Notes: generated by a model not told the origin, from the letters alone. Counted from the first letter of the stretch, positions 1,322 to 25,642 are shown. The stretch is DNA of 27,882 nucleotides from Candidatus Micrarchaeota archaeon (GCA_043800965.1 JAZDMM010000109.1:1-27882); one strand, 5' to 3'. Made by a program: numbers and translations.

Positions 1322-1368
1322 CCTCTTTTCTTTTAGTAAAAGAAAAGAGCTGCACCAGAAAAGAAAAC
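1322..1368 (+). repeat. tRNA-associated palindromic element, copy A
   Basis: Perfect 12-bp hairpin CTCTTTTCTTTT-AGT-AAAAGAAAAGAG (1323-1349), then ACCAGAAAAGAAAA. Confidence 0.75.
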
Positions 1369-1376
1369 GCGCGCGC

Positions 1377-1868
1377 TTACTTGACGTAGTGCTTGTCGTA
1401 CTGCCTCAAGTCGCCCCATTCCTCTAACGGGAAAAAGTCGTAACGCGGCGGCTTACGGCTTTGCTTGCCGCCTGGTTTTTTCTTTTGTTTAGTTTCTTGC
1501 GGCTGTGCCTTTTGTTCTTGCTTTTCCTTTTCTATTTTTTCGGGTTGCGTTTTTTGCCTGGTTTTCTCCTCGTCTTTCCGCACTTCCTTGACGAGTTGCT
1601 TCGCGTCTGTTTTGACTTTTTTCGCTTGCTGCGGCTGAGTTTTCGGGGCGGGAGGGAGTTCCGGAACGATTTCGCCGCCTTTGCTGGTGTGCTTGAACGC
1701 GTCGTACAAGCCCCAGCCGAGCACTCCCACGACGCCGAGGTAAACGAAAATGCACGGGCCTTGCAGTTCGCGGAATAAAAAGCTCAAGACTATGCAGCTG
1801 AAAACCATCATTAACAGCGCTATGATCGCTAATGCGAATTTCTGTTTTTTCGGGTCCCCTTCAAACAA
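1377..1868 (-). CDS. Hypothetical membrane protein (2 N-terminal TM helices, K/E/Q-rich tail)
   Basis: Two hydrophobic segments followed by a charged low-complexity region; tandem with the ORF at 1875-2132. Confidence 0.65.
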   Translation of the reverse strand: MFEGDPKKQKFALAIIALLMMVFSCIVLSFLFRELQGPCIFVYLGVVGVLGWGLYDAFKHTSKGGEIVPELPPAPKTQPQQAKKVKTDAKQLVKEVRKDEEKTRQKTQPEKIEKEKQEQKAQPQETKQKKKPGGKQSRKPPRYDFFPLEEWGDLRQYDKHYVK

Positions 1869-1874
1869 AACAAG

Positions 1875-2132
1875 TCACCGTTTCCGCGAGTTGAACTCGA
1901 TTGCGAGAAGGTATTGCAGTATGATCGTGACTGACAACGCGAGGAAGGAAAACAAAGCAATGAACGCGAATCGAATCAACGCAAAAGCGTTGTCTGCCAG
2001 CAATCCCGCTATGAAAAACGCGATGAATACGACGGAGACGACGATTGAACCGAGCTCGAGCAAGTACAGCCAGTCGTTAAGCTGTTTCTTGTCCTTTGGC
2101 AAAACCCATTTCAACAGGAAGTCGCGGCACAT
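1875..2132 (-). CDS. Small hypothetical membrane protein (2 TM)
   Basis: 85 aa with two long hydrophobic stretches; AT-rich divergent promoter region at about 2140-2175. Confidence 0.6.
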   Translation of the reverse strand: MCRDFLLKWVLPKDKKQLNDWLYLLELGSIVVSVVFIAFFIAGLLADNAFALIRFAFIALFSFLALSVTIILQYLLAIEFNSRKR

Positions 2133-2177
2133 GCCTTGATTACGCTATTATTAATTAAATACGTTACAATTAACTTC

Positions 2178-2543
2178 GTGAGAAAGTCCCTGGTCGACTA
2201 CAAAAACGAGTTTCACAAGATAGTGGGCGTTCCGCTCGACCACCCTGAAGCAGGGGAAAAGCTCGCGGACAGGCTGACGGAGCTCCATACCGCCTGCGAC
2301 GACTGGTTTTCTACGGGCTTAATGTTCAGGTTCCAGCGCGGCAAGGGCTCGGACCGCGTTCACGGAGTCGGCGGGAAAAAAGAGGTTCGGGTTTCAACGT
2401 CGTTAAACAAGGTCGAACGCAATTTCAACAACCGCGTTACGGATCTCCGCCGGCTTATGCAAGCGATCCGCGCGTTGAAGAAGCAAGGGCATTTCACGGA
2501 CGTTGATTTAACGCCGTTTTTCAAGTATGGAAAGGCTAATTGA
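2178..2543 (+). CDS. Hypothetical protein
   Basis: Start moved from 2136 to GTG 2178 because 2136-2177 is AT-rich promoter-like sequence; the stop overlaps the NUDIX start region. Confidence 0.55.
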   Translation: MRKSLVDYKNEFHKIVGVPLDHPEAGEKLADRLTELHTACDDWFSTGLMFRFQRGKGSDRVHGVGGKKEVRVSTSLNKVERNFNNRVTDLRRLMQAIRALKKQGHFTDVDLTPFFKYGKAN

Positions 2544-2545
2544 AA

Positions 2546-2953
2546 ATGGTAGCTTACGGAGCATTGGTGGTTGCGTACAGGATTACGGCTCGCGGGCGCG
2601 AGTTTTTGCTAGTCAAGAACACGCGCAGCAAGAGGTGGAGTTTCCCCGCAGGCCACGTGGATGAAGGCGAAGAGCATTCGGTTGCAGCGCTGCGCGAATT
2701 GCAAGAGGAAACTACGTTAAAGCGGGAAGACCTCGTGGAATTCAAGAACACCGGCCAGTGGAATGTTTTTTACGATGACGAATGCGTTCAAGTGCGGCAG
2801 AAAGTATTCGTCGCTTTAGTTAATTCGGAAGCGCACGTTCAAGCCGGTGACATGATTGACGAATTCAAGTGGGTTGCGGAAGCCGACGTGCCGAAAGTTT
2901 TAACCGAACTCAGCTTGCGCGAGCTCTACGCAAAGATAAAATCAACTCTTTAA
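2546..2953 (+). CDS. NUDIX hydrolase
   Basis: Nudix box GHVDEGEEHSVAALRELQEETTL (GX5EX7REUXEE); alternative TTG start at 2540. Confidence 0.92.
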   Translation: MVAYGALVVAYRITARGREFLLVKNTRSKRWSFPAGHVDEGEEHSVAALRELQEETTLKREDLVEFKNTGQWNVFYDDECVQVRQKVFVALVNSEAHVQAGDMIDEFKWVAEADVPKVLTELSLRELYAKIKSTL

Positions 2954-3012
2954 ATCCTTTAAATCGAAATCGGAGTTGTTAGCGGGCTTGTTTGGTTGCC
3001 GAGCGGGTTGGG

Positions 3013-3026
3013 GAAAGGTTTAATAA
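3013..3026 (+). promoter_or_regulatory. BRE/TATA promoter of the rpoP-rpl3 operon
   Basis: GAAAGG followed by TTTAATAA (3019-3026), upstream of the operon. Confidence 0.55.
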
Positions 3027-3117
3027 ATCAAATACGGCATATATCGTAACTCTGTTGCGAGTGTTTTTTATTCGCGTTTTTTAGAGTGTGAGTTTCATCA
3101 TTTAGACTGTGGTTGTT

Positions 3118-3255
3118 ATGGCTACGTACGTTTGTTCGAACTGCGGAAAGGAATTGGATTCAAGCGAGCTAGAGTTTATTCGCTGTCCGTACTGCGGTAA
3201 CAAGGTTTTGTTCAAGAAAACTCCTCCTGTTTTGAAGAAGTTTTCGAGCGATTGA
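3118..3255 (+). CDS. rpoP: DNA-directed RNA polymerase subunit P (Rpo12) (not in ORF track)
   Basis: Manual translation MATYVCSNCGKELDSSELEFIRCPYCGNKVLFKKTPPVLKKFSSD; zinc ribbon Y.C..CG...IRCPYCG.K.L.K is typical of Rpo12. Confidence 0.92.
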   Translation: MATYVCSNCGKELDSSELEFIRCPYCGNKVLFKKTPPVLKKFSSD

Positions 3256-3260
3256 TTTGA

Positions 3261-4226
3261 ATGGGTATTAAGCGAAAGCCTCCGGGCAGGGGGTCGCGTA
3301 GTTTTTGGCACAGACGCCGTGCGAGCAGAATTGTTCCGAGAATCAGGTCGTGGGGAGACCACGGCAAAGGCCTCGAGGCATTCGGCGGAATCAAGGCTGG
3401 AATGATTCACGTTGTCATGGTTGAAGACAGCGAGGCGCCGACTAAAGGCCAGGAAGTTGCGAAGGCCGCGACTGTTGTTGTTACCCCTCCGTTGTTCGTT
3501 TATTCAGTTATCGCGTTCAAGAAAACGATTGAGGGTTTGAAGCCGTTCGCCGAGGTTCCGGCTACGATCGGGATTCCGAAGGAAGCAAAGCGCGTTTTGA
3601 CTCCGGCAAAGAAAGCAAAGCATTCTATTGACGATTTGAAAAAGCAAGTCAGTGAAATCGCTGACGTGCGCATTATCGCTTTATCGCTGTCGTCTAAATC
3701 CGGCATTTCCAAGAACCCGTTCGTTATTGAAATGGCCGTAGGCGGCGCGAACGCGGCGGAAAAACTTGATTTTGCAGCAAGCGTTTTAGGCAAGGAAGTT
3801 TCGGTTTCCGATGTTTTCAACGAAGGCGATGTGGTAGATACTATTGCGGTTACCAAGGGAAAAGGATGGCAAGGAGTTGTCAAGCGTTACGGCGTTGCCT
3901 TGAACATCAGGAAAGCCACGCAGAAGCGCAGGCACGGAGGCTCCCTTGGAGCGGAACGCCAAGCCAAGGTCATGTACACCATCCCGCGCGCGGGTCAAAT
4001 GGGTTTCCACAGGAGAACCGACTGGAACAAGAGAATCATGGCTGTTTCCAAGGACTCCGGCAAGTTCACGCCCGCAGGCGGGTTCAAGCGTTTCGGTATT
4101 CCGAAGACTGATTTCGTCTTGATTGAAGGCAGTATTCCCGGCCCGTCAAAGCGTTTCGTTTTATTGAGGAAAAGCTTGCGCAACAAGAAGAGCGCGAAGC
4201 CGGAAATAAAGAAGATTGTCAAGTGA
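3261..4226 (+). CDS. rpl3: 50S ribosomal protein uL3
   Basis: PRGSRSF, VTKGKGWQGVVKRYG, PRAGQMGFH, GSIPGP motifs. Confidence 0.98.
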   Translation: MGIKRKPPGRGSRSFWHRRRASRIVPRIRSWGDHGKGLEAFGGIKAGMIHVVMVEDSEAPTKGQEVAKAATVVVTPPLFVYSVIAFKKTIEGLKPFAEVPATIGIPKEAKRVLTPAKKAKHSIDDLKKQVSEIADVRIIALSLSSKSGISKNPFVIEMAVGGANAAEKLDFAASVLGKEVSVSDVFNEGDVVDTIAVTKGKGWQGVVKRYGVALNIRKATQKRRHGGSLGAERQAKVMYTIPRAGQMGFHRRTDWNKRIMAVSKDSGKFTPAGGFKRFGIPKTDFVLIEGSIPGPSKRFVLLRKSLRNKKSAKPEIKKIVK

Positions 4227-4230
4227 TTTT

Positions 4231-5031
4231 TTGAAAGCTACTGTACTCGGTTTGAACGGCTCGAAGTCGAGCGAGGTAGAGTTGCCTCACCACTTCGAGG
4301 AAGAGTTCAGGCCGGATTTGATCAAGCGCGCGTTTCACGCATTCCGTTCCTTAAGCTGGCAGCCGAAAGGCGCTTTCCCGATGGCGGGAATGCAGACTAC
4401 GGCGGAATACTACGGCCGTAGGCACGAGCCGCGCCAGACCATTAACACCGGGCGCTCGCGTTTGCCGCGTGAAAAGATTGCGCCCGACCGCTTGGGCCAA
4501 GTGCGCCAGGTTCCGCAAGCAGTAGGCGGCCGCAGGGCTCACCCGCCGAAGCCGTGGACGGTTTTGCGCGAGAAAATTAACATTAAGGAAAAGAACAAGG
4601 CGATTCGCAGTGCAATAGCCGCGTCCGCAAGCGAGAAAATTGTGAAGAACCGCGGCCACAAGTTTTCTTGCAAGTTACCGCTTGTCGTTTCAAAGGATTT
4701 CGAGGGCGTGAAGAAAGTCAAGGAAGCCGCGAAAGTCTTGATTGACTTTGGCGTTGGCGATGACTTGAAGCGCGCGAAAGACGGCCGCAAGATGCGCAGC
4801 GGTAGGGCGCGCTTGAGGAAAGGCGGTTACAAGGTGCCGGTTAGTGCTTTGATTGTTTTCGCGGAAGACCATGGAATCAGGAAGGCGGCGAGGAATTTGC
4901 CGGGTGTTGACGTGGTTAAGGTGCAGGATTTGAATGCGGAATTGCTTGCTCCCGGCGGAGTCGCGGGGCGCTTGGTGGTTTGGACGCAGGACGCAGTTGA
5001 GAAGCTGGACAAGGAGAGGTTATTCGAGTGA
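4231..5031 (+). CDS. rpl4: 50S ribosomal protein uL4
   Basis: VPQAVGGRRAHPPK, LNAELLAPGG motifs; start set at TTG 4231 after the SD-like GTGAT. Confidence 0.97.
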   Translation: MKATVLGLNGSKSSEVELPHHFEEEFRPDLIKRAFHAFRSLSWQPKGAFPMAGMQTTAEYYGRRHEPRQTINTGRSRLPREKIAPDRLGQVRQVPQAVGGRRAHPPKPWTVLREKINIKEKNKAIRSAIAASASEKIVKNRGHKFSCKLPLVVSKDFEGVKKVKEAAKVLIDFGVGDDLKRAKDGRKMRSGRARLRKGGYKVPVSALIVFAEDHGIRKAARNLPGVDVVKVQDLNAELLAPGGVAGRLVVWTQDAVEKLDKERLFE

Positions 5032-5279
5032 CGATTATCATTAATGCATTGACTACCGAGAAAGCAGTTGCAGGCATCGAGCGCGAGAACAAGATTACGT
5101 TCGTTGTAGACGGCAAGGCGACGAAAGCCGATGTAAAGACGGAGGTCGAGCGGTTGTACGGCGAGAAAGTCGTTAAAGTCAATGTTTTGGTTTCTTCCCA
5201 CGGGGTTAAGAAAGCGATGGTCAAGTTCAAGCGCGAGGGCGCGGCTTCGGATTTGGCTGCCAGGTTGAAAGTGATTTAA
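5028..5279 (+). CDS. rpl23: 50S ribosomal protein uL23
   Basis: TEKA...ENKITFVV...KKAMVK pattern and operon position. Confidence 0.97.
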   Translation: MTIIINALTTEKAVAGIERENKITFVVDGKATKADVKTEVERLYGEKVVKVNVLVSSHGVKKAMVKFKREGAASDLAARLKVI

Positions 5280-6013
5280 TGGGTAAAATGCTGAAGCACC
5301 AGAGGCGCGGTAAAGGCTCTAGCGTTTATCGTACTCCTAGCCACAGGTATTACTCTAAAGTAAAGTACCCGCGTTTCCAGAAATCGTTCGACGGCGAGGT
5401 TTTGGGTTTCGTCGACGATCCGGGTCACGGTGTTTTAATCGCGTTAATCGAGCTGGATGACGGCTCCGAGTTTTTGAATTTAGCGTCTGAAGGATTGGCG
5501 ATGGGGGCGCGCGTCAAGGTTTTGAAGAACGACAAGCCGAGAGTCGGCGATGTTTCTAAATTGCGCAATTTGCCGGAAGGCACTCCCGTGTTCAACGTGG
5601 AAGCGAATCCCGGCGACGGCGGCCAGTTCGCGAGGGCAACGGGCGCGAGCGCGATGCTGCTTGCGCAAGACGAGGACACCGGATTGTACAACGTGCGCCT
5701 TGCGAGCAAGGCCATTAAGAAATTGTCTCCCGATTGTTTTGCGACAGTGGGCGTTGCTTGCGGCGGCGGCAGAACAGAGAAGCCGTTCAAGAAAGCGAGC
5801 GCTAGGCGTTTTGCAATGAAGGCGACTCACCGCATTTACCCGCGCGTTCGCGGCACGGCAATGAACGCCAACAACCACCCGCACGGTGGAAAGAGTATGG
5901 GCAAGCCGTCTACGGTGTCCAGGCACGCGCCGCCGGGCCAGAAGGTCGGCCACATCGCGGCTCGCAGGACCGGCAGGAGAAAAGGAAAGAAGAGTAGTGA
6001 TATGAATGGCTAG
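5279..6013 (+). CDS. rpl2: 50S ribosomal protein uL2
   Basis: QRRGKGS, RVRGTAMNANNHPHGG, PPGQKVGHIAARRTG. Confidence 0.98.
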   Translation: MGKMLKHQRRGKGSSVYRTPSHRYYSKVKYPRFQKSFDGEVLGFVDDPGHGVLIALIELDDGSEFLNLASEGLAMGARVKVLKNDKPRVGDVSKLRNLPEGTPVFNVEANPGDGGQFARATGASAMLLAQDEDTGLYNVRLASKAIKKLSPDCFATVGVACGGGRTEKPFKKASARRFAMKATHRIYPRVRGTAMNANNHPHGGKSMGKPSTVSRHAPPGQKVGHIAARRTGRRKGKKSSDMNG

Positions 6014-6398
6014 AAAATTTGTTTACCGCGGAATCAACGTCGAGGAATTGCAGAAATTGCCTTTAGACGAGTTCATCAAGATGCTGCCGGCTACGCAGCG
6101 CAGGACTATGAAGCGGTCGAACAAGCACATCAAGGTTTTTCTCGCGAAGTTCCGCGACCACCAGAAAAAGCACAAGGACAAGCCCGTGAAAACGCATTTC
6201 AGGGACATGATTGTTTTCCCGGAGATGCTTGGCGCCAGGATTCAGATTTACGCGGGCAAGGACTGGGCGGACATCACGATTACTCCGGAAATGCTGGGCC
6301 ACCGCTTGGGCGAGTACTCGCACACGACTAAAATGGTTAAGCACAGCGGCCCGGGTATCGGGGCAACTCGCGGAAGCAAGTCAGTGGAGTTGAAGTAG
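6006..6398 (+). CDS. rps19: 30S ribosomal protein uS19
   Basis: KTHFRDMIVFPEMLG, MLGHRLGEYSHT. Confidence 0.98.
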   Translation: MARKFVYRGINVEELQKLPLDEFIKMLPATQRRTMKRSNKHIKVFLAKFRDHQKKHKDKPVKTHFRDMIVFPEMLGARIQIYAGKDWADITITPEMLGHRLGEYSHTTKMVKHSGPGIGATRGSKSVELK

Positions 6399-6403
6399 GC
6401 AAA

Positions 6404-7111
6404 ATGGGTTTACACAAGTACGCATTCAAGGGAAAGAAGCAGTCGGGCAAGGCGCAGGCTCACGACGTTGACGCTTCTTTCAAGGACTTCAGCCAGGTTT
6501 GCTTGGCTATCAAGCGCAAGCCCGTTACCAAAGCGCGCGTCATATTAGACGAGTGCATTTCAATGAAGAAAGCGATTCCTTACCACAAGTTCGCGAAAGG
6601 CACGGGCCACCGCAGCGAGCTCGGAGGCAGGCGCGGCAAGTACCCGATTAAGGAAGCAAAGCTCACGCTGAAACTATTGAATAACGCGGTTGCAAACGCT
6701 GTTAACCAGGGATTAGACGAGGAAAAGCTCGTTGTGGCGCACGCACTCGCGAACAAGCAAGTCACTTACAAGCGTTACCGCAGGACTTGGGTGGGCAGCC
6801 ACACGCTCGGTTACGGCCGTTTCGCCATGTGGGGTAATTACGTTACTTGCATGGTTCAGATAGTTGTCGAAGAATCCGACAAGATTAAGCCGGATAAGGA
6901 AAAGAAAACGGAATCGAAAGCCAAGCAGAGGCCGAGAAAGCGAACCGAAGCTCAAACAAAAAAACAAGAAACGAAGCCGGTTGAAGTGAAGACGGAAGAG
7001 CTCAAGAAAGAGGAAGTGAAGCAGGAAGAAGAGAAGAGCACGGAAGCAAGGGAGAAAGTTCACGCTGAAAAGGAAGAGAAAAAGAAAAACGAGATTATGG
7101 TTGTTGGCTAG
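6404..7111 (+). CDS. rpl22: 50S ribosomal protein uL22 with K/E-rich C-terminal extension
   Basis: GKYPIKEAK...LLNNAVANA; operon position. Confidence 0.95.
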   Translation: MGLHKYAFKGKKQSGKAQAHDVDASFKDFSQVCLAIKRKPVTKARVILDECISMKKAIPYHKFAKGTGHRSELGGRRGKYPIKEAKLTLKLLNNAVANAVNQGLDEEKLVVAHALANKQVTYKRYRRTWVGSHTLGYGRFAMWGNYVTCMVQIVVEESDKIKPDKEKKTESKAKQRPRKRTEAQTKKQETKPVEVKTEELKKEEVKQEEEKSTEAREKVHAEKEEKKKNEIMVVG

Positions 7112-7121
7112 GAGTGATTGA

Positions 7122-7982
7122 ATGGCAGTAGAGAGGAAATTCATTAAAACCGCGTTGCATGATTTAGAGCTCAAGCGGTTCCTGCGCAAGGAATTAGAAA
7201 AGGCGGGAGTGTCGAGCATAGTCATTCAAAAGACTCCGATTGCGACTAGAATTACGATTACGGTTAAGAAGCCCGGCATGGTAGTCGGGAAAAAAGGAAA
7301 AGCCATTAAAGAGCTTTACACGCTTTTGCAGGAGAAGTACGGGGTTGAAAACCCGCAGCTCGAGATTCTCGAGGTGCAGCATCCTAATTTGGATGCGCAA
7401 TTGGTCGCGGAGCGAATCGGCAGGCAAGTTGAAATGCGTCCCCGCGTAAAGCCCATTATACGCTTTGCGTTGAACGACGTCATGGCTGCGGGAGCCATCG
7501 GAGCTGAAATCCGCGTTGCCGGAAAAATCGTGGGTAAAGGCGGCAAGGCTAAGACGTTGTCGGTTCGCGCTGGTTTCTTGAAGAAGTCCGGTGACATGAT
7601 GAAAAAAGTTCACGTAGGCCGGTTCACCGCTTTCCTTAAGGCGGGCACGATCGGAATCACGGTTAAAATAGTTCCCCCGGGCACGGTCTTCCCCGACAAG
7701 ATCACGGTTAAGAAGCCGGAAGCGGAAGTAACGCCGGAACAACAGGCTGTAGTTGAAACGGCAGAGGAAAAACCGGTTGAGGAAAAGAAGGAAGAAAAGA
7801 AAGAGGAAAAGAAGAAAGCGCCGAAGCCGAAGAAGAAGCGCGCAATCAAGAAGAAAACCGAGGATGGAAAAGAAGTTGCTACTGATGCGGCGGGCGAGGA
7901 AATCGCGGTTAGCGACGGGGAAAAGCAGGTTGACAAGGAAATAATCAAGGAAGCAAAGGAAGAATTGAAGAAGGACGATTGA
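7122..7982 (+). CDS. rps3: 30S ribosomal protein uS3 with K/E-rich C-terminal extension
   Basis: KH domain (KPGMVVGKKGKAIK), GAIGAEIRVAGK, GTIGITVKI. Confidence 0.97.
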   Translation: MAVERKFIKTALHDLELKRFLRKELEKAGVSSIVIQKTPIATRITITVKKPGMVVGKKGKAIKELYTLLQEKYGVENPQLEILEVQHPNLDAQLVAERIGRQVEMRPRVKPIIRFALNDVMAAGAIGAEIRVAGKIVGKGGKAKTLSVRAGFLKKSGDMMKKVHVGRFTAFLKAGTIGITVKIVPPGTVFPDKITVKKPEAEVTPEQQAVVETAEEKPVEEKKEEKKEEKKKAPKPKKKRAIKKKTEDGKEVATDAAGEEIAVSDGEKQVDKEIIKEAKEELKKDD

Positions 7983-7983
7983 A

Positions 7984-8190
7984 ATGGCTGTTTACCGAAA
8001 GAAGGATTTGAAGTCAATGCCTGAAGCAGAGCTCAAGGCAAAGCTCGCGGACGTGGAAAAGGAAGTTGACCAGGAGCGCGCTTCCACGAAAGCAACCGGC
8101 AAGCCAAAGAACGCGGGCCGCTTCAAGGAATTGCGGAAAGTCAAGGCAAGGATACTAACTATTTTAAAACAACGCGAAATAAAGAAATAG
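7984..8190 (+). CDS. rpl29: 50S ribosomal protein uL29
   Basis: N.GRFKELRKVKARILT motif; operon position. Confidence 0.93.
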   Translation: MAVYRKKDLKSMPEAELKAKLADVEKEVDQERASTKATGKPKNAGRFKELRKVKARILTILKQREIKK

Positions 8191-8205
8191 AGGTTTTAAT
8201 TCAAC

Positions 8206-8532: not shown

Positions 8533-8552
8533 TTTTCAACGTTTTTCAGAGC

Positions 8553-8566
8553 GAATGGTTTAAATA
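8553..8566 (+). promoter_or_regulatory. Internal BRE/TATA promoter upstream of rnp1
   Basis: GAATGG-TTTAAATA (TATA 8559-8566) in the only long intergenic gap of the S10 part. Confidence 0.45.
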
Positions 8567-8622
8567 GTGTTGGAGTTACGATTATTAAATCGCCTTATCA
8601 TCGGTAAGGCGGCTTCGTGTTT

Positions 8623-9212: not shown

Positions 9213-9218
9213 TTTTGA

Positions 9219-9614: not shown

Positions 9615-9620
9615 TATTTC

Positions 9621-17588: not shown

Positions 17589-17594
17589 TTCGAA

Positions 17595-18146: not shown

Positions 18147-18154
18147 ATTCGATT

Positions 18155-18322: not shown

Positions 18323-18355
18323 AGCCCTTTATTTGCAGTGATCTAATATATTTTC

Positions 18356-18649: not shown

Positions 18650-18657
18650 AAGTCGCC

Positions 18658-19578: not shown

Positions 19579-19692
19579 GTTTTTAAAGCAATTCGGCAAC
19601 AATAATAGAGTCGGGATTTGGCCCGCGAGGGGCTGGATTCAGAGAGCGCGTTCTGCAGGTTTTTATAGTCCCGAGCGCAAAATATTTTTCAC

Positions 19693-19953
19693 GCTGGGAT
19701 GGCAGAGCGGTAATGCGCACGCCTGGAAAAGCTTTTTCTTGGTTGCTCGGTTTTGAGCGTACCAGAAGAAAAATCCGTAAAGCGTGTGGGCGCGAGCCCT
19801 CCTGAGTTCGAGACCACCCCTTTCTTTTCATAAAGAAAGGTGCGGTCGTCCGCCAAAGAAACGCACGCAAACCGTTCGGGTTTGCGGCGCACGACAAATC
19901 TGTGGATTTGACGTGACATGGACGACATTGGTGAACAAATCTCAGTCCCAGCG
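19693..19953 (+). tRNA. tRNA-Ser(GGA) with two introns (19729-19780 at 37/38; 19812-19938 at 58/59)
   Basis: Acceptor GCTGGGA/TCCCAGC with G73, anticodon stem CACGC/GCGTG, variable arm GGGC-GCGA-GCCC, T stem CTGAG/CTCAG. Intron 2 has a clean BHB: GTTC/GAAC helix, bulges GA|G and AA|A, ACCA/TGGT helix. TATA-like TTTTTATA lies about 30 nt upstream. Confidence 0.9.
19817..19861 (+). repeat. tRNA-associated palindromic element, copy B (in tRNA-Ser intron 2)
   Basis: CCTTTCTTT-TCAT-AAAGAAAGG-T then CGCCAAAGAAA. Confidence 0.75.
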
Positions 19954-19982
19954 TTTTAATTTTATTTGAAACGGATGTTGAA

Positions 19983-20591
19983 ATGGCTAAGGAAGACAGA
20001 TCAAAGACGGAAAAGCCGAAGGAAGCTCCGAAGCACCGCGAGGTTCGCGTGAGCGAGAAAGCCAAGGCCAAGGAAGCAGCTGATTTTCGCGGAGTCATTC
20101 GTTTCATCGGCTGTGATTTGGATGGTCACTTGCCTGTGGGGGGCGCGTTGCGCAAGATCAAGGGAGTTGGCCACAACATTTGCGGTTTTATTTTGAGATT
20201 AGTAAAGAAGGAACTTAACATTAACGCCGACGAGTTAGTCGGTAACTTGACGGAAGAGCAGGTTGACGCGATTGAGGAAATCGTGACGAATTTGAACAAG
20301 CGGAAAGCTCCTTCGTTTTTGTTGAATCGCCAGCGTGACATGGATTCCGGTTCAGACAAGCACTTGATTTCCAGTGATTTGACTTTTCAAATCAGGCAAG
20401 ACATTGAGCGCGAGAAGAATTCGCGTTCGTGGAAGGGCTGGAGGCACCAGTTGGGCCAGCCGGTTCGCGGCCAGCGCAACAGGACTACGGGCCGCAAGGG
20501 CTTGACTGTGGGAGTCTTGAAGAAGGCTTTGAAGCAGCAGAAGACCGCGGCTGCGGGCGCTGCGCAGAAAGACAAGGCAGATAAAAAGTGA
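19983..20591 (+). CDS. rps13: 30S ribosomal protein uS13
   Basis: IKGVG, LLNRQRD..SG.D.HL, SWKGWRHQLGQPVRGQRNRTTGR. Confidence 0.97.
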   Translation: MAKEDRSKTEKPKEAPKHREVRVSEKAKAKEAADFRGVIRFIGCDLDGHLPVGGALRKIKGVGHNICGFILRLVKKELNINADELVGNLTEEQVDAIEEIVTNLNKRKAPSFLLNRQRDMDSGSDKHLISSDLTFQIRQDIEREKNSRSWKGWRHQLGQPVRGQRNRTTGRKGLTVGVLKKALKQQKTAAAGAAQKDKADKK

Positions 20592-20597
20592 TAATTA

Positions 20598-21191
20598 ATG
20601 GGTCATCCTCCGAGACGCACTAAACGATACGAAAAGCCGAAGAAGCTGTGGGACGCAACCCGCATTAAAGAGGAGAAGGCGTTCAAGCTGGAGTACGGTT
20701 TGAAGAACATGCGCGAGCTTTGGAAGATGCAGACTATTTTGAGGAAGGTCAGGCGCGAGGCTCGTCGTTTGCTGTCGAGGAAGGGCTCTGGCTTGGAGAA
20801 GCGCACCGAACAATTGTTGAACCGCGTCAAGAGCTTTTTGGTTTCCGGCGAGGTTTCACTCGATGACATTCTTACGTTAACCGAGCGCGATATTCTAAAC
20901 CGGCGCCTTCAGACGATTGTAGTCAAGCGCGGTTTGGCTAAGACGCCGGGCCAGGCTAGGCAGTTCATTGTTCACGGCCATATTGCGGTTGCTGGCCAGA
21001 AAGTAAACGCTCCTTCTTACTTGGTTAAGTTCGACGAGGAAAAGCGCGTTGACTGGTTCAAGCACCCGATTAAGTTCGCGTCTGCTCCGGCTTCTGCAGA
21101 GGAAGATGAGGCTGTTGAAGAAAACGGAGTTGAGACGTCGGCTGCTGAAAAGAGGGAGAAACGGCAGTTGAAGAAGGAAGAAAAAGAGTGA
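20598..21191 (+). CDS. rps4: 30S ribosomal protein uS4
   Basis: EYGLKNMRELWK, RRLQTIV.KRGLAKT..QARQFIVHGHI. Confidence 0.97.
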   Translation: MGHPPRRTKRYEKPKKLWDATRIKEEKAFKLEYGLKNMRELWKMQTILRKVRREARRLLSRKGSGLEKRTEQLLNRVKSFLVSGEVSLDDILTLTERDILNRRLQTIVVKRGLAKTPGQARQFIVHGHIAVAGQKVNAPSYLVKFDEEKRVDWFKHPIKFASAPASAEEDEAVEENGVETSAAEKREKRQLKKEEKE

Positions 21192-21197
21192 TTTTGA

Positions 21198-21674
21198 ATG
21201 GCTGACGATTCACGCGATTTCAGGGGAGGGCAAAGGCCCATGCACCGCGGGCCCAGAAGGGACTTTGGCCCGCGCACGGTTTTGCCTAAGGAAGGCAAAT
21301 GGGGCGTTGCGCACGTTTTCTCGAGCAAGAACAATACGGTTGTTACGATTACTGATTTGAGCGGTGCTGAAACCATTTCCGTCGGAAGCGGCGGCATGGT
21401 TGTAAAGAGCGACCGCGAGCAAGGCAGTCCTTACGCAGCCATGCAAGCCTCGTTCAAGGCTGCCGAACAGGCGAAAGAGCGCGGCATTGTCGCGATTCAC
21501 GTTCGCGTGCGCGCCCCGGGCGGGCACAAGACTAAGACGCCGGGGAGCGGTGCTCAAGCGGCGATTCGCGCGTTGGCGCGTTCGGGCTTGAAGATTGGTA
21601 AAATCGAGGATGTTACTCCTATTCCGACCGATACTACGAAGAGGAAAGGCGGTAAGAGGGGCAGGCGCGTTTAG
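21198..21674 (+). CDS. rps11: 30S ribosomal protein uS11
   Basis: [40 protein letters not shown]. Confidence 0.98.
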
Positions 21675-21687
21675 AGTTGGTGTGATT

Positions 21688-22314
21688 ATGGCTTCGTCTT
21701 TAAAGGTTTTGAAGGAAGAGGAAAACAGGCTTACGCTGCACGCGAGCGGTTGGGATTCTTCTTTACTGAATGCGCTGCGCCGCACGGTAATCAGCGATTT
21801 ACCCGCGTTTGCAATTGACGAAGTTGATTTTTACGAGAACTCGAGCGTTTTGTTTAACGATTACTTGGCTCACCGCATTGGTTTGATTCCGTTGTCGTTC
21901 GAGGAAGGCTTGAAGGATGATGCAACTGTTTCGTTTGCGTTGGATGCGGAAGCGATTGACGAGGACCGCTTCGTTTACAGCAAGGAATTGACGAGCACGG
22001 ACGACAAGATTAAGGTTCAATTCCCGAATATTCCGATTGCGAAATTGGTTAAAGGCCAGAAGCTGAGGCTCGAGGCTACTGCGGTGATCGGCACCGGTAA
22101 AAAACACGCGAAGTTTCAAAGCGCGTTAGCGAGCTTTGGTTCCGCCGAAGACTACAAAGAGCGCAAGGACGATGCGTTGAAGCCGCAGTTGAAGCAAGGC
22201 GATTTCGTTTTTTTCGTAGAGTCGTTCAACAACTTGAGCGCTAGGCAGCAACTCAACCGCGCGCTTGAAACGGTTGAAAGCGAATTAACGGTTTTAGAGA
22301 AAGAGTTGAAATGA
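21688..22314 (+). CDS. rpoD: DNA-directed RNA polymerase subunit D (Rpo3), short form
   Basis: NALRRT, NSSVLFNDYLAHRIGLIPL, G.GKKHAKFQ; true start is ATG 21688 after GTGATT. Confidence 0.95.
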   Translation: MASSLKVLKEEENRLTLHASGWDSSLLNALRRTVISDLPAFAIDEVDFYENSSVLFNDYLAHRIGLIPLSFEEGLKDDATVSFALDAEAIDEDRFVYSKELTSTDDKIKVQFPNIPIAKLVKGQKLRLEATAVIGTGKKHAKFQSALASFGSAEDYKERKDDALKPQLKQGDFVFFVESFNNLSARQQLNRALETVESELTVLEKELK

Positions 22315-22580
22315 AGATACGGGTTCAAGCGAACTCGAAGCAGGAATCGTGTTTATTGCGCGACGGCGTTGTCGTTGTTCGCGTGAAAGCCAAGCCCGTC
22401 GAAGGCAAGGCAAACAAGGAAGTCGAAAAAATCCTCTCGGCTTTCTTCAAGACGAAAGTATTAATCGTCAAGGGCTCGAAGTCCCGTGACAAAGAAGTCA
22501 AGATTGACGGCTTGTCTGATGAAGACGCCCTTGATTTCGTTCGCGGGGGTGGCAGAGCCTGGTCAAATGCGCAGGATTGA
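22311..22580 (+). CDS. DUF167/UPF0235 (YggU-like) protein
   Basis: V.V.ANSK, VRVKAKPVEGKANKE, I.KG.KSRDK; the 3' end overlaps tRNA-Leu. Confidence 0.88.
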   Translation: MKIRVQANSKQESCLLRDGVVVVRVKAKPVEGKANKEVEKILSAFFKTKVLIVKGSKSRDKEVKIDGLSDEDALDFVRGGGRAWSNAQD

Positions 22581-22627
22581 GGTTCCTGTCCCTTAGGGGT
22601 CCGAGGGTTCAAATCCCTTCCCCCGCA
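22543..22627 (+). tRNA. tRNA-Leu(GAG)
   Basis: Acceptor GCGGGGG/CCCCCGC, anticodon arm CAGGA-TTGAGGT-TCCTG, long variable arm, T loop TTCAAAT. Confidence 0.97.
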
Positions 22628-22651
22628 TACGCAAAAAATAGTTGATTGAAA

Positions 22652-23011
22652 ATGAAGAGAGGTCCGGAAAGCATTGCAACAAGGCGCATGGTCGCGCTGC
22701 TCGAGAACGCGGGCCGCAAAAACAAGGCGGCTGTGTGGCTCAAGGTAGCGGAGCGCTTGCAGAAACCGCGCCGCAAAATGCCGGAAGTCAACTTATTCAA
22801 GCTCGATAAAGTCGCTAACGAAGGCGACGTAATCGTTTTACCCGGCAAGTTGTTGGGCATTGGCGTTTTAACTAAGAAAGTGACTGTTGCCGCGTTCAAG
22901 GCGAGCAAGGAAGCCAAGGCTAAAGTATCGAAGTCCGGCGGTAAACTCTTGACTGTCGCGGACTTAGTCAAGCAAAACCCGTCAGGCAAGGGAATCAGGA
23001 TTATAGTGTGA
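22652..23011 (+). CDS. rpl18e: 50S ribosomal protein eL18
   Basis: W.KVAE.L.KPRR...EVNL.KL, PGKLLG.G, FKAS..A. Confidence 0.95.
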   Translation: MKRGPESIATRRMVALLENAGRKNKAAVWLKVAERLQKPRRKMPEVNLFKLDKVANEGDVIVLPGKLLGIGVLTKKVTVAAFKASKEAKAKVSKSGGKLLTVADLVKQNPSGKGIRIIV

Positions 23012-23017
23012 TTTGAA

Positions 23018-23440
23018 ATGATTGTTTTCGATGCAAAGGATTGCGTTGCGGGCAGGCTCGCTTCTTACACTGCGAAGACGCTTTTGAAAGGCGAGCAAGT
23101 GGTTATCGTTAACGCCGAGCTCGCGATTCTCTCGGGTAATGCCGTGAAAATCGTTTCGAAATACAGCGACAGGCGCGGCATCCAGCAAAAAGCGGATCCC
23201 GAGCACAGCCCGAAGTGGCCGCGCAGGCCAGACTTTTTGCTGAAGCGTATTATTCGCGGCATGCTTCCTCCTCACACCGCTAGGCGCTCGAATGCAATGA
23301 AGAATTTGAGAGTGTTCATGGGAGTGCCTAAGGAGTACGAAGGCAAGGGAAAGCCGGTTGCGGCGCGCAAGAAGCAAGACTTTACGCGCAAGGTAATTAC
23401 TTTAGGTTTCATTTGCAAGAAACTCGGTTGGAAGAGTTGA
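23018..23440 (+). CDS. rpl13: 50S ribosomal protein uL13
   Basis: GRLAS..AK.LL.GE.V.IVNAE, PRRPD..LKRIIRGMLP. Confidence 0.97.
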   Translation: MIVFDAKDCVAGRLASYTAKTLLKGEQVVIVNAELAILSGNAVKIVSKYSDRRGIQQKADPEHSPKWPRRPDFLLKRIIRGMLPPHTARRSNAMKNLRVFMGVPKEYEGKGKPVAARKKQDFTRKVITLGFICKKLGWKS

Positions 23441-23446
23441 TTTTAA

Positions 23447-23869
23447 ATGGCTGTTAAGAAAACGAGCAGGAAAAAGAAAGCGCAAGTCGTTACTCGAGGC
23501 AAGCGCAAGCGCGCTATTGCGCGCGCTTCGATTAAGCCGGGTTCGGGCTTGGTTCGCGTCAACAGCCAGTTGCTTTCATCCATTCAAAACCCGTTCTTCA
23601 AGGCTATTGCGGGCGAAGCTTTGAACTTCGTTGACTGCAAGGGCGTTGACATTTCGGTTTCCGTTAACGGCGGTGGCGTAATGGGCCAGGCCCAGGCGGT
23701 TCGAACCGCTATTGCGCGCGCTTTAGTAGACCATTTTAAGGACGAGAAGCTTAAGGAAGAAATGATTGCGTTTGACCGTTCATTACTCGTTGAAGACTCG
23801 CGTAGAGTCGAGCCCAAGAAGTTCTTGGGACCCAAGGCGCGCGCTCGCTTCACGAAGTCGTACAGGTAA
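23447..23869 (+). CDS. rps9: 30S ribosomal protein uS9
   Basis: GKRKRAIARA, GGGVMGQAQAVRTAIAR, DSRRVEPKKF.GPKARARF.KSYR. Confidence 0.98.
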   Translation: MAVKKTSRKKKAQVVTRGKRKRAIARASIKPGSGLVRVNSQLLSSIQNPFFKAIAGEALNFVDCKGVDISVSVNGGGVMGQAQAVRTAIARALVDHFKDEKLKEEMIAFDRSLLVEDSRRVEPKKFLGPKARARFTKSYR

Positions 23870-23885
23870 AGGAGATTGATGCAGA

Positions 23886-24083
23886 ATGTTGATTCCGGTT
23901 CGTTGTTTCACGTGCGGTAAACCCGTTTCCGAGCACTACGACGAGTTCAAGAAGCGCGTTAAAGACGGGGAAGACCCGGCGAAGGCACTCACCGAGCTGG
24001 GAGTTACTCGCTACTGCTGCAGGCGCATGTTCGTTGCGACCGTGGACTTAATCGAGGAAATCATTCCTTACCCGCGCTTCTAG
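23886..24083 (+). CDS. rpoN: DNA-directed RNA polymerase subunit N (Rpo10)
   Basis: MLIPVRCFTCGKPV, RYCCRRM. Confidence 0.98.
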   Translation: MLIPVRCFTCGKPVSEHYDEFKKRVKDGEDPAKALTELGVTRYCCRRMFVATVDLIEEIIPYPRF

Positions 24084-24086
24084 AGA

Positions 24087-24120
24087 AGCCCTTTTTATTC
24101 CTCTTTCTTTCTATTTACCT
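24087..24120 (+). terminator. Oligo-T/pyrimidine tract after rpoN
   Basis: CCCTTTTTATTCCTCTTTCTTTCTATTT immediately after the last CDS of the operon. Confidence 0.4.
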
Positions 24121-24192
24121 AATTGCATTTCTCTCGCAGGAGGGGGATGCTTCCAAGGGTAGCGGGGGAACCTGGGTTCCCCCAAGACGCTT

Positions 24193-24265
24193 GGGGGGTT
24201 AGTGTAACCTGGCATCACGCGGCCTTGGGGTGGCCGTAATCCGAGTTCAAATCTCGGACCTCCCA
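24193..24265 (+). tRNA. tRNA-Pro(GGG)
   Basis: Acceptor GGGGGGT/ACCTCCC (one G-U pair), anticodon arm CGGCC-TTGGGGT-GGCCG, T arm CCGAG-TTCAAAT-CTCGG. Confidence 0.95.
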
Positions 24266-24266
24266 C

Positions 24267-24317
24267 TGAAGCCCCTTTTCTTTGAAAAAGCAAAAGGTGC
24301 TTCATCGCCAAAAGAAA
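24267..24317 (+). repeat. tRNA-associated palindromic element, copy D (3' of tRNA-Pro)
   Basis: TGAAGC-CCCTTTTCTTT-GAA-AAAGCAAAAGG-T-GCTTCA then TCGCCAAAAGAAA. Confidence 0.72.
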
Positions 24318-24369
24318 GAGTTTTGTTGAAAAGAAAGCTTTAACTTTCAATGTTGGCTAAAATTGTTTC

Positions 24370-24942
24370 ATGGCTCAGAGAGAAGAAAGGGAGTTGAAAC
24401 CTACTCCAGCGGAAAAGGAACGGATTAAGCGAGGCCGGCAACAGGCGGTTAAAAAGAACATCGCCAAACTGCTTTTAGCTACTCATCTAGCTGCTTTTAC
24501 GGCAGGCGCTTTTGCGACTGAAAAGCTTCTGGTTCCTTTTCAGAAAAAACAAGCTGCTAACGCCGAGTATTACCGCCAAGTACAGCGCTTGAGTTTTGCC
24601 GACGAATGGGGCCGCGTTAGCCCGTTGTTCGCTTCACGGCCTTCTCCTACTGTTTTACGCGGAGTAGAATCATTGGGGCTGCCTATTCACGATGTAATAA
24701 ACACGTTGAACATTTACATGCGCAACAACAAGCTAAACCAGCGAGAGATTACTCGCCTAGAAGGCCAGAGGCAGAACGAACCCGAACGCGTAGGCAACAT
24801 CATAAAAATATTGACTTTCGGGCTCCAAAATCCTGAGGCGGCTGAAGCCTTGCGTTTGCACGGCGCTAATTTCTACGTTCATTCCGCTTTATTCGACATG
24901 CCCGCGGATTTCTACGAGTTTAAAGAAGCTCTGAAGAAGTGA
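24370..24942 (+). CDS. Hypothetical protein with one predicted TM segment
   Basis: 190-aa ORF with a hydrophobic stretch LLLATHLAAFTAGAFA; promoter-like AAAGCTTTAACT at 24334-24345. Confidence 0.65.
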   Translation: MAQREERELKPTPAEKERIKRGRQQAVKKNIAKLLLATHLAAFTAGAFATEKLLVPFQKKQAANAEYYRQVQRLSFADEWGRVSPLFASRPSPTVLRGVESLGLPIHDVINTLNIYMRNNKLNQREITRLEGQRQNEPERVGNIIKILTFGLQNPEAAEALRLHGANFYVHSALFDMPADFYEFKEALKK

Positions 24943-25358
24943 CTGCGTTAATGCCCGAGGAACAAAAACAACTAGCCAAGCCCAAGCAGCTTCAGGAAGA
25001 GGAAGCGCGTTTAAGGCACAATCTGCGCAACCGAGTTTTCCTGGCAATGGGCGTAGTTGTTATAATGTGGCTGCTTGGTTCGTTGCTGTTTCACAACATC
25101 GAGGACTGGAGCTTTACTGACTCGATGTACTTTTCCGCATCCACTCTGACAACGGTAGGCTACGGGGATCTTGTTCCGCGGACTCAACTCGGGAAACTCG
25201 TTTCAATCCCGTTCATGTTCTTCGGAGTAGGCGTCATTTTATACAGCATTTCGATAGTCGGTGCGTATTACGCCGAAAGGCAGTTTGAAGCCTTGACTTC
25301 TTACGGTTTCCACCGACTCCGCCGCCTCCCTAAATTCGCTCGAAGAAAGCGCGAGTAA
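24939..25358 (+). CDS. Two-TM potassium channel (KcsA-like, Ion_trans_2)
   Basis: Selectivity filter STLTTVGYGD between two TM helices; no RCK domain. Confidence 0.92.
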   Translation: MTALMPEEQKQLAKPKQLQEEEARLRHNLRNRVFLAMGVVVIMWLLGSLLFHNIEDWSFTDSMYFSASTLTTVGYGDLVPRTQLGKLVSIPFMFFGVGVILYSISIVGAYYAERQFEALTSYGFHRLRRLPKFARRKRE

Positions 25359-25370
25359 AAGCTTTAACTA
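25358..25370 (+). promoter_or_regulatory. BRE/TATA promoter of tRNA-Gly
   Basis: AAAGCTTTAACTA about 30 nt upstream of the tRNA; the same 12-mer occurs at 24334-24345. Confidence 0.55.
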
Positions 25371-25399
25371 CGTTTTCCGCCACTATTCTTTATTCAATT

Positions 25400-25642
25400 G
25401 CGCCGATGGTCTAATGGTATGATCCAAGCCCTCCATTGCCCACCCCTTTCTTTTTAGAAAAAAGAAAGGTCTGGGCGAGCGCCAAAGAAAAACGAACGAT
25501 GGCGGCCGCCAAAAAGAAAACCCGTTACGCTTCAAACGCGGAAGGGGTCGGAGGACTAAGCTCCGGGGAAACCAACGCTTTGGTTGCCCCTTCGGCTTAG
25601 AGAGGCAAGCTTGAGGCCCGGGTTCGATTCCCGGTCGGCGCA
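25400..25642 (+). tRNA. tRNA-Gly(TCC) with a 172-nt intron at 37/38 (25436-25607)
   Basis: Acceptor GCGCCGA/TCGGCGC with A73, anticodon stem CAAGC/GCTTG, T arm CCGGG-TTCGATT-CCCGG. Splice motif: CCTC/GAGG central helix with a CA|A bulge. Confidence 0.85.
25438..25492 (+). repeat. tRNA-associated palindromic element, copy C (in tRNA-Gly intron)
   Basis: GCCCA-CC-CCTTTCTTTTT-AGA-AAAAAGAAAGG-TC-TGGGC then CGCCAAAGAAAAA. Confidence 0.78.

Follow-up and report, generated by a model that had tools for sequence, protein, structure and literature searches.

The window, by which we mean the whole 27,882-nucleotide stretch of DNA analysed here, contains four copies (A to D) of a small palindromic element associated with four tRNA genes. 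Each copy consists of a pyrimidine (Y) arm, a purine (R) arm and a third, purine tract (the tail) on a single strand, and all four copies have the orientation of the tRNAs:

450..535, + strand: tRNA-Leu(TAA); its final 11 nt, CTCCCCCTGCA, are repeated at 1311-1321, before copy A
1317..1369, + strand: copy A, directly preceded by the repeated last 11 nt of tRNA-Leu; outer stem TGCA/TGCA (1318-1321 / 1351-1354), Y arm CTCTTTTCTTTT (1323-1334), R arm (1338-1349), third tract AGAAAAGAAAA (1357-1367), the parallel complement of TCTTTTCTTTT
19693..19953, + strand: tRNA-Ser(GGA) with two introns, host of copy B; the T-loop intron (intron 2) spans 19812-19938 (127 nt; expected splice junction 19811/19939)
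19812..19862, + strand: copy B, the first bases of the T-loop intron; Y arm 19819-19827, R arm 19832-19840, linker mini-hairpin GCGG-TCGT-CCGC (19842-19853), third tract AAAGAAA (19855-19861)
24193..24266, + strand: tRNA-Pro(GGG), host of trailer copy D
24267..24319, + strand: copy D, beginning one base past tRNA-Pro (ARAGORN end 24266); outer stem TGAAGC/GCTTCA, Y arm 24274-24283, R arm 24287-24297 with one bulged C, third tract CCAAAAGAAA (24308-24317; arm 4-C-3, tail 4-G-3)
25400..25643, + strand: tRNA-Gly(TCC) with a long intron (expected splice junction 25435/25608), host of copy C
25438..25493, + strand: copy C, located two bases inside the intron of tRNA-Gly; outer stem GCCCA/TGGGC, Y arm 25445-25455 (3-C-5), R arm 25458-25469, third tract CCAAAGAAAAA (25482-25492; 3-G-5)
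25509..25520, + strand: additional purine stretch CCAAAAAGAAAA within the Gly intron, which repeats the R arm directly and not as a mirror

The four copies had been proposed in a sequence-only reading of the window; they were refolded here and found again with a covariance model trained on 26 copies. This model has just four full-length matches in the window, copies A–D, and one partial match on the opposite strand that falls on the palindrome of copy A. As single strands, copies A–D fold far better than shuffled sequences (z of -3.0 to -5.0), and no Rfam family accounts for the element, either in the window or at 15 bacterial loci. The palindrome in the first intron of tRNA-Ser (19733-19775), which had been considered related, lacks a tail, has no model match and is not a member of the family. 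Copy A is the trailer element of tRNA-Leu(TAA), moved away from its tRNA by a 0.8-kb insert; in three relatives (L028, L030 and L032) the same subtype lies 3′ of a tRNA that likewise ends in CCCTGCA.

A profile search of the 835-kb Micrarchaeota-type genome (79% complete) recovered 38 copies. Twenty of these lie within 100 nt of a tRNA, a zone that makes up 1.37% of the genome (P ~ 1e-27), and all 20 share the orientation of their tRNA, with the 5′ edge at the tRNA 3′ end or at a 5′ splice site; at least 13 copies are located within tRNA genes. The strict co-orientation and the position of the 5′ edge at RNA processing sites are also compatible with a role at the RNA level. Among about 41 Y/R hairpin loci in the genome, the tail is downstream in 36 and upstream in 2. 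Near-identical subtypes occur at loci that are unrelated to each other. All 5 outer-stem pairs show compensatory changes, and the covariation score was matched by none of 500 shuffles: the family is not a chance product. The absence of copies among protein genes, claimed from the window, holds there (its protein-gene block has no covariance-model match) but not elsewhere in the genome, where the 3′ flanks of protein genes also host copies. Similarly, the proposed homing to tRNA genes agrees with the enrichment in this genome but not with other genomes, in which most copies lie away from tRNAs. The architecture is also present across DPANN archaea and in several bacterial metagenome-assembled genomes, with Verrucomicrobia GWC2_42_7 and rumen Clostridia among the bacterial carriers.

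On the sense strand, the Y arm follows the pattern C(1-4)T(3-7)CT(3-7). Loop 1 has 0–8 nt, mostly 2–4, and loop 2 has 5–20 nt and usually holds an outer-stem strand or a mini-hairpin. Because the C is not at the same position in every copy, a MAFFT/RNAalifold alignment shows too little of the inner helix, and run-length parsing was used in its place. The tail had been described as a conserved motif; it is conserved, and it is more than that, since it complements the 5′ arm in parallel orientation and so mirrors the 3′ arm. In 32/34 copies of this genome and in 33/41 copies of relatives, the first A-run of the tail is as long as the first T-run of the arm. Informative copies obey the mirror rule in 24 of 25 cases (own genome) and 26 of 32 cases (relatives), compared with 0/25 and 1/32 for a direct-repeat rule (permutation P < 1e-5). 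A switch model, with the tail as an alternative pairing partner, was rejected because the tail obeys the mirror and not the direct-repeat rule. The extra tract CCAAAAAGAAAA in the Gly intron is a direct copy of the R arm and is therefore a possible alternative partner for the Y arm; additional or tandem tails also occur in relatives. In bacterial families the mirror rule extends into a mixed-sequence outer stem with compensatory changes (GCGAGAGGG/GCTCTCCC versus GCGGGAGGG/ACCCTCCC, for example), where it is obeyed at 82/136 positions (control maximum of 78 in 1,000). Together, the outer-pair covariation and the mirror rule bear out the earlier suggestion that the repeat family is under structural selection.

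By its sequence signature, the element has a class II intrastrand-triplex architecture: the pyrimidine arm pairs with a purine arm in the hairpin, and the third tract is a purine mirror of that second arm. As a result of this mirroring, every base of the third tract could sit on the purine of a matching pair (A·A-T and G·G-C). We infer that such a triplex would form in single-stranded DNA and not in sense RNA. The complementary strand constitutes a pyrimidine-motif (class IV) version of the element, and the stem mismatches (38 of G.T type and 41 of A.C type) show no RNA-strand signal in their wobble asymmetry. Counting against the triplex reading, loop 2 exceeds the length known from PIT motifs, and the outer stem competes with fold-back of the tail in copies A, C and D.

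Removal of the T-loop inserts restores canonical tRNAs, in keeping with the earlier view of the element as the core of long introns. Of eleven inserts taken out in this way, nine gave one clear isotype call (Ala, Asp, His, Arg, Met, Lys, Gly, one labelled Ile(AAT) and the Ser of the window, which ARAGORN mislabels as Tyr); C23 was ambiguous and C34 gave no call. At the splice sites of Ser intron 2, a helix, a 3-nt bulge, a 4-bp GUUC/GAAC helix and a 5-nt bulge can be drawn by hand, but the minimum-free-energy fold has an internal loop in this region; within the Gly intron, a GGAGG is paired with the anticodon loop. We infer that element-containing introns are actually spliced. The T5–T7 runs within the introns are expected to hinder archaeal transcription. 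The candidate splicing endonuclease (EndA) is a single 383-amino-acid open reading frame on contig C117 with two tRNA_int_endo-type catalytic domains. Its sequence places it with the broad-specificity, ARMAN-2 epsilon2-like type (387 amino acids in ARMAN-2; PMC3239211), predicted to be able to cut non-canonical sites.

The age of these introns differs between tRNAs. Introns built on the element are found in the tRNA-His, tRNA-Asp, tRNA-Arg(TCG) and tRNA-Lys(TTT) genes of this genome or of individual lineages; the orthologues of these genes in relatives are without introns, and the element introns therefore look like gains. The same tRNA can also carry element-made introns at different positions in different lineages. 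The tRNA-Ser T-loop intron, by contrast, is present in all 27 relatives in which the site was assembled, with or without the element, so it is, judged by this distribution, order-wide and older than its element copy; its content turns over quickly among orthologues. De novo intron gain, as originally put forward, thus fits the first four tRNAs but not tRNA-Ser.

Target duplications of 11–42 nt flank six or seven of the non-tRNA copies, with scores of 11–32 compared with a control 99th percentile of 10. Duplications at the ends of the T-loop introns had been suggested by eye; in this genome they do not rise above shuffled controls (nine scored, C96 left out), and the tRNA-Lys of genome G002 provides the only convincing intron-end duplication. 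The earlier idea of a REP/MITE-like element gained no support from a search for mobilising enzymes: no HUH/RAYT, TnpB, reverse transcriptase, tyrosine integrase or Cas1 gene and no PF01797 (Y1/HUH transposase) match was found in the 79%-complete genome. A viral carrier was likewise rejected, with only 2 exact-pattern matches in viral contigs. In a look at replication-strand bias, a 1.30-Mb contig of the relative G030 showed only 8 strict copies and a noisy GC skew. Overall, the interpretation in the sequence-only reading is partly supported.

We lean, with some reserve, towards the explanation that the element is a DNA-triplex insertional repeat that accumulates at gene ends, at tRNA ends and in tRNA loops. 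It would be a small repeat without a detectable enzyme of its own, copies of which build up where inserts are tolerated: past genes, past tRNA 3′ ends and within tRNA loops. In a tRNA loop, the ends of the element and the flanking bases would form a relaxed bulge–helix–bulge, and the broad-specificity splicing endonuclease would therefore take the insert out as an intron. The empty search for a mobilising gene counts against this explanation, as do the T-loop introns of this genome, whose ends show no target duplication, the T5–T7 runs within introns and the tRNA-Ser intron that is older than its element.

The spread of the element may be tied to replication stalling and template switching. 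The hairpin or triplex would stall replication, and the stalled strand would copy an element located elsewhere and then return upstream, leaving templated insertions with variable flanking duplications. Transfer RNA genes are natural fork-pausing sites and would therefore be preferred targets, and insertions in their loops would persist as bulge–helix–bulge introns. The full proposal, of a protein-independent mobile DNA that moves by stalling, gives rise to non-canonical archaeal tRNA introns and has bacterial relatives, is speculative and in our estimate unlikely.

An equally doubtful alternative is a functional sense-RNA module, in which the third tract makes tertiary contacts with the hairpin. 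RNase Z or the splicing endonuclease would cut this module out of pre-tRNAs and give it a precise 5′ end, and the module would then serve as a stable RNA, small or circular, or as a signal for processing or stability. The uniform orientation of the tRNA-linked copies and their start at tRNA 3′ ends or 5′ splice sites favour such a module, as do the bacterial copies, which occupy 3′ UTR positions 23–49 nt past stop codons and are mostly sense, and the subtypes, which are kept across genera together with their linkers. However, the third tract of the archaeal copies fits the purine motif alone, and this motif reportedly does not form in RNA (PMC4666352). The stem mismatches have no sense-strand G.U excess, and among the non-tRNA copies four or five run antisense to neighbouring genes. 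Approximately half of the intron-less tRNAs have no element, and the fast turnover of content in the orthologous Ser intron also speaks against a conserved RNA function.

A bidirectional transcription terminator or insulator is less probable still. T-runs on both strands would stop the archaeal RNA polymerase, and a hairpin or triplex on the non-template strand would strengthen the block 3′ of highly transcribed genes. The element lies at the 3′ ends of genes and tRNAs, in several cases between two convergent genes, and this placement would suit such a role, as would its T-rich sense-strand start, C(2-4)T(3-7)CT(3-7), and the two T-rich tracts on the opposite strand. Against it stand the copies inside tRNA genes, where termination would be lethal, the ordinary T-runs at the ends of element-less tRNAs and a mirror-coded third tract that termination does not need; bacterial copies lack a hairpin-plus-U-tract arrangement, and BoxC/PIT elements showed no terminator activity in Escherichia coli (PMC4666352). 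A selected structure on antisense RNA, an ENE/MALAT1-like U·A-U triple helix that could protect the 3′ ends of transcripts entering tRNA genes, is very improbable: the complementary strand is a perfect pyrimidine motif with a single C+·G-C, and the A-rich strand adjoins the tRNA end in trailer copies, but the copies in introns and 3′ UTRs do not fit and the wobble test shows no antisense bias.

These findings bear on how archaeal protein-spliced tRNA introns arise, because they provide a concrete, recognisable unit that forms newly gained introns, has free copies with target duplications and bears a testable structural code. The bacterial intrastrand-triplex repeats, which are poorly understood, also gain an archaeal counterpart, with hundreds of covarying copies and clear positional and orientation biases that could help to work out the role of triplex-coded repeats. 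If stalling-driven mobility were true, the family would be a long-sought source of non-canonical archaeal tRNA introns.

Like ENE/MALAT1, the element encodes a potential fold-back triple helix beside a tRNA-type processing site. In ENE/MALAT1 the sense RNA supplies all three strands of the helix, two of them U-rich and one A-rich, whereas the element has this arrangement on the antisense strand only. Like REP/BIME sequences and MITEs, copies are short palindromic extragenic repeats directly 3′ of genes and form mosaics with other small modules and nested insertions. Unlike REP, they have no detected Y1/HUH gene and no conserved GTAG-type foot, and they carry a third tract that REP lacks; unlike MITEs, they have long and variable duplications (11–42 nt) without a fixed target-site duplication, and no related autonomous insertion sequence was found. 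The triplex code in the tail ties the element to BoxC/PIT and not to REP.

Intron transposition in Thermoproteales (Fujishima et al. 2010, as described in PMC3239211 and PMC4090602) is similar, as far as those accounts go, in that related introns occur at differing positions of differing tRNAs alongside a broad-specificity EndA, and in that the non-canonical introns are apparently recent gains. By the same accounts the present case differs in that the unit is a defined triplex-coded hairpin that is also found outside tRNAs (at gene ends and in bacteria), with target duplications at non-tRNA sites.

The closest resemblance in architecture is to BoxC/PIT/TMECO, the bacterial intrastrand triplex motifs of ITxF class II (Hoyne et al. 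2000; Holder et al. 2015, PMC4666352). Both have the class II order of three successive blocks on one strand (pyrimidine, complementary purine, mirror purine), are multi-copy, intergenic and very similar within a genome without an associated transposase, and are accompanied by local rearrangements, which for this element are flanking duplications and assembly breaks. The element is A/T-rich with a single C/G, in contrast to the G/C-rich consensus CCCTCNCCC...GGGNGAGGG, and its arms do not match the full TMECO/BoxC form, CCCTCNCCC N3-6 GGGNGAGGG N3 GGGNGAGGG. Its second loop is structured and longer than in described PIT motifs (loop limits of 1–6 nt in ITxF and 0–10 nt in Hoyne et al.), while loop 1 is as short as in such motifs, and it has a strong orientation bias, whereas TMECO has none. 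Unlike the bacterial PIT repeats, it occurs in archaea, at tRNA ends and as the core of tRNA introns; tRNA is not mentioned by Holder et al. (2015; PMC4666352). By sequence, the element and TMECO/BoxC thus have a common architecture and belong to separate sequence families.

The element that recurs beside and inside tRNA genes in the window is a hairpin, formed by a pyrimidine arm and a purine arm, that is followed by a purine tail. Its four copies (A–D) lie at the positions, and in the tRNA orientation, that the sequence-only reading had given. ARAGORN and Rfam identify four uninterrupted tRNAs in the window; two other tRNA genes carry long inserts.

1317-1369, copy A, after an 11-nt repeat of the tRNA-Leu 3′ end
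19693-19953, tRNA-Ser(GGA), interrupted by long inserts
19812-19862, copy B, at the start of the 127-nt T-loop intron of tRNA-Ser
24267-24319, copy D, beginning one base past tRNA-Pro
25400-25643, tRNA-Gly(TCC), interrupted by a long insert
25438-25493, copy C, 2 bases inside the tRNA-Gly intron

Each of the four hairpins is much more stable than shuffled sequences (z from −3.0 to −5.0). The minimum-energy fold of copy B consists of the inner hairpin and a linker mini-hairpin (GCGG-TCGT-CCGC), which places the tail beside the hairpin base. Within the Gly intron, a second purine tract (25509-25520) is a direct, not a mirror, repeat of the hairpin 3′ arm; tandem extra tails are frequent in relatives (L028, L030, L040, L042 and the Ser intron of G007). 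The anticodon loop of this tRNA-Gly (25430-25436) has C at position 33, where U is almost universal. A 0.8-kb insert (524-1321) with two small open reading frames (ORFs; 619-885 and 891-1286) separates tRNA-Leu from copy A; it is delimited by an 11-nt repeat, CTCCCCCTGCA, at 525-535 and 1311-1321, a second 11-mer, TAAGACTCTAG, lies just within both ends, and we found no integrase in it.

These copies belong to a repeat family and are not isolated lookalikes. Searches with an nhmmer profile together with a covariance model (R1, built from 26 copies) found 38 non-redundant, oriented copies in the genome under study (G000; 835 kb, 79% complete). Within the order, the covariance model also matches 27 of 40 relatives (28 of 41 when G000 is counted), among them 20 of the 24 genomes from its own family, and several subtypes, set by the outer stem and linker, recur in different genera. 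The sequence of the relative G007 is identical to that of a public Micrarchaeota MAG contig (L050 = L084), which makes the genome under study a Micrarchaeota-type DPANN archaeon. Rfam searches of the window and of 15 bacterial loci gave no family for the element. Scanning 185,579 species genomes for the exact pattern gave at least 114 stretches; the archaeal matches listed include many from Micrarchaeota and others from Aenigmatarchaeota, Altiarchaeota, Pacearchaeota, Nanoarchaeota and Iainarchaeota MAGs, and the bacterial matches listed come from Verrucomicrobia GWC2_42_7, rumen Clostridia, and Hydrogenedentota, Desulfarculaceae and Nitrospiraceae MAGs. Verrucomicrobia GWC2_42_7 has at least 12 copies, one of which shares a contig with a tmRNA gene; at L111:3589-4255, a locus of this genome, a copy of the same architecture lies approximately 255 nt downstream of a tmRNA gene. 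In the Verrucomicrobia copies, a terminator-like hairpin of an A-run and a T-run comes next.

The first A-run of the tail matches the first T-run of the 5′ arm. If the 5′ arm is C(n) T^x C T^y and the tail is CC A^p G A^q, p equals x in 32 of 34 parsed copies of G000, in which x spans 3 to 6, and in 33 of 41 parsed copies of relatives. Where x differs from y, the mirror rule is obeyed in 24/25 copies of G000 and 26/32 of relatives (permutation P < 1e-5), and longer arms conform as well (TC-TTTT-C-TTT-C-TTT with AG-AAAA-G-AAA-G-AAA). The tail is thus the parallel complement of the 5′ arm and the mirror of the 3′ arm; judged by these run lengths, it codes for a predicted triple helix of the purine motif (A*A-T, G*G-C) whose third strand would run antiparallel to the purine arm. 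The direct-repeat rule that an alternative-pairing switch would need holds in only 0/25 and 1/32 copies, respectively. The tail is one-sided, downstream at 36 loci and upstream at 2. In bacterial families the third-strand rule also reaches the outer stem, which is of mixed sequence, with compensatory changes (GCGAGAGGG with GCTCTCCC, GCGGGAGGG with ACCCTCCC, CCGGGGGGA with CCCCCT), and is obeyed at 82 of 136 positions (control maximum of 78 in 1,000 permutations). There, a purine-rich 5′ strand is matched by a pyrimidine third strand, fitting the pyrimidine motif (T*A-T, C+*G-C), and a pyrimidine-rich one by a purine third strand, so that one rule gives a canonical triplet at every base pair. 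This extension is absent from the archaeal copies (25% of positions, as in random sequence). We are confident of the family and its triplex code.

The zone reaching 100 nt from tRNA genes accounts for 1.37% of the G000 genome and holds 20 of the 38 copies (binomial P of about 1e-27), all 20 co-oriented with the tRNA; inspection links three more to tRNAs (C1:189, C96 and the displaced copy A). The element starts 0–2 nt past the tRNA 3′ end at Pro, Tyr, Arg, Val, Gly-GCC and Leu, and the other tRNA-linked copies begin at an intron 5′ splice site. The remaining copies are found at gene 3′ ends, 7–8 in sense and 4–5 in antisense orientation. The concentration at tRNA loci that had been proposed is borne out in G000, but in other genomes most copies lie elsewhere: in three better-assembled relatives only about 20–30% of copies are at tRNAs, and bacterial copies lie 23–49 nt past stop codons, chiefly in sense orientation.

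That the element forms the core of long tRNA introns was borne out. T-loop inserts open with it in at least 10 tRNAs, and in silico removal of 11 inserts restored a single clear tRNA call in 9 (Ala, Asp, His, Arg(TCG), Met, Lys, Gly, one labelled Ile(AAT) and the window Ser, which ARAGORN mislabels as Tyr); one was ambiguous and one gave no call. A predicted 383-aa endonuclease has two catalytic-type domains and corresponds to the epsilon2 type of ARMAN-2, which is of broad specificity.

Several tRNAs point to de novo intron gain, as the sequence-only reading had suggested. tRNA-His is uninterrupted in four relatives (G018, G009, G005 and G037), and has a T-loop intron built on the element (an element-intron) in G000; in G006 its element-intron is at 37/38, and in G016 it has a D-arm intron. 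tRNA-Asp has no intron in at least 15 genomes spread over the order, and a T-loop element-intron in G000 and G007 only; for tRNA-Arg(TCG), G014 and G034 have the uninterrupted gene. Two genomes of one genus differ at tRNA-Lys(TTT), which is uninterrupted in G011 and holds a T-loop element-intron in G002, the end of which (GGGTTGCGAAA) is a near copy of exon GGGTTCGAA. As intron positions differ between lineages, the comparison argues for independent gains over many losses. The orthologous tRNA-Ser upstream of rps13 is the exception: among 30 loci, of which three are on contigs that begin downstream of the T-loop region, the T-loop intron is present in 27/27 relatives with that region assembled, and the anticodon intron in 25/25 in which that part is also assembled. 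The content of the T-loop intron is highly variable, and the element occurs in about eight lineages, with differing run lengths and matching tails, and is missing or decayed elsewhere; this intron is therefore older than its element copy. In about seven relatives (L166-L170, L181 and L190) the contig begins inside or beside this tRNA-Ser, which suggests that the repeats break short-read assemblies.

Direct target duplications flank six or seven non-tRNA copies, scoring 10–32 against a 99th percentile of 10 and a maximum of 14 at 400 random control sites.

C23:1777, duplication of 32-42 nt, 5′ end of a gene
C115, duplication of 30 nt
C86:10904, duplication of 21-39 nt
C110, duplication of 22-35 nt
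C64, duplication of 14-20 nt
C98:1094, duplication of 11 nt, tRNA 5′ end
C29, duplication of 22 nt, imperfect

The upstream repeat ends 3–9 nt before the element and the downstream repeat begins about 15–22 nt past it (52–60 nt at C98 and C29). Nine scored T-loop introns of G000 show no such duplication. In two archaeal MAGs (L094 and L116), flank and element are duplicated in tandem as 97–98-nt units, a further type of local duplication at the element. Mobility and intron seeding by the element are probable in our view. Mobility of the REP/MITE type, as originally envisaged, was not supported: searches of G000 (79% complete) for an HUH/RAYT (Y1) transposase, TnpB, reverse transcriptase, tyrosine integrase or Cas1 detected none, and no tyrosine recombinase (PF00589), not even a XerA-type gene, was found in this 79%-complete genome. 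The variable duplications, the absent enzyme and the bias towards tRNA genes would all be explained by replication stalling with template switching, a route that we regard as rather unlikely.

Other repeat modules occur nearby. One (window 19863-19922; seven copies, including C96:2849-2905, C105:44-100 and C70:840-881) has two small hairpins framed by CGCAC...CGTG and is nested within the loop or 3′ arm of the element hairpin at C70 and C96. A 52-nt G-rich structured module (24141-24192; eight copies in G000) abuts the tRNA-Pro 5′ end; at least one copy (C39) lies upstream of another tRNA gene and another (C6:6853-6904) adjoins a weak tRNA-like match, and it is possibly a tRNA leader element. 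The 3′ part of the tRNA-Gly intron (25537-25612) is a third module with six copies, one of which (C29:13700-13755) comes after a triplex element behind a protein gene.

An RNA-level role for the element is a plausible alternative. Its strict co-orientation with tRNAs and the coincidence of its 5′ edge with processing sites speak for such a role, but stem mismatches (38 of G.T type versus 41 of A.C type) show no excess on either strand, and hence give no hint that one strand is selected as RNA. Furthermore, the sense strand of the archaeal copies holds only triplets of the purine motif, which reportedly does not form in RNA (PMC4666352); single-stranded DNA is thus the likelier folding molecule, a preference to which we give about an even chance. 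In single-stranded DNA, the non-template strand would fold as a class II and the template strand as a class IV intrastrand triplex.

The architecture is that of the class II intrastrand triplex of the BoxC/PIT/TMECO repeats of E. coli and other bacteria, described by Holder et al. 2015 (PMC4666352), citing Hoyne et al. 2000 and 2002, in a paper that nowhere mentions tRNA. Where one strand carries a class II motif, the opposite strand carries a class IV motif of the pyrimidine type; the bacterial repeats block DNA polymerase in vitro, have neither promoter nor terminator activity and are associated with local genome instability (PMC4666352). On balance, we lean towards a triplex-coded insertional repeat, kin in kind to BoxC/PIT, that is tolerated at transcript ends and becomes a spliceable intron in tRNA loops.
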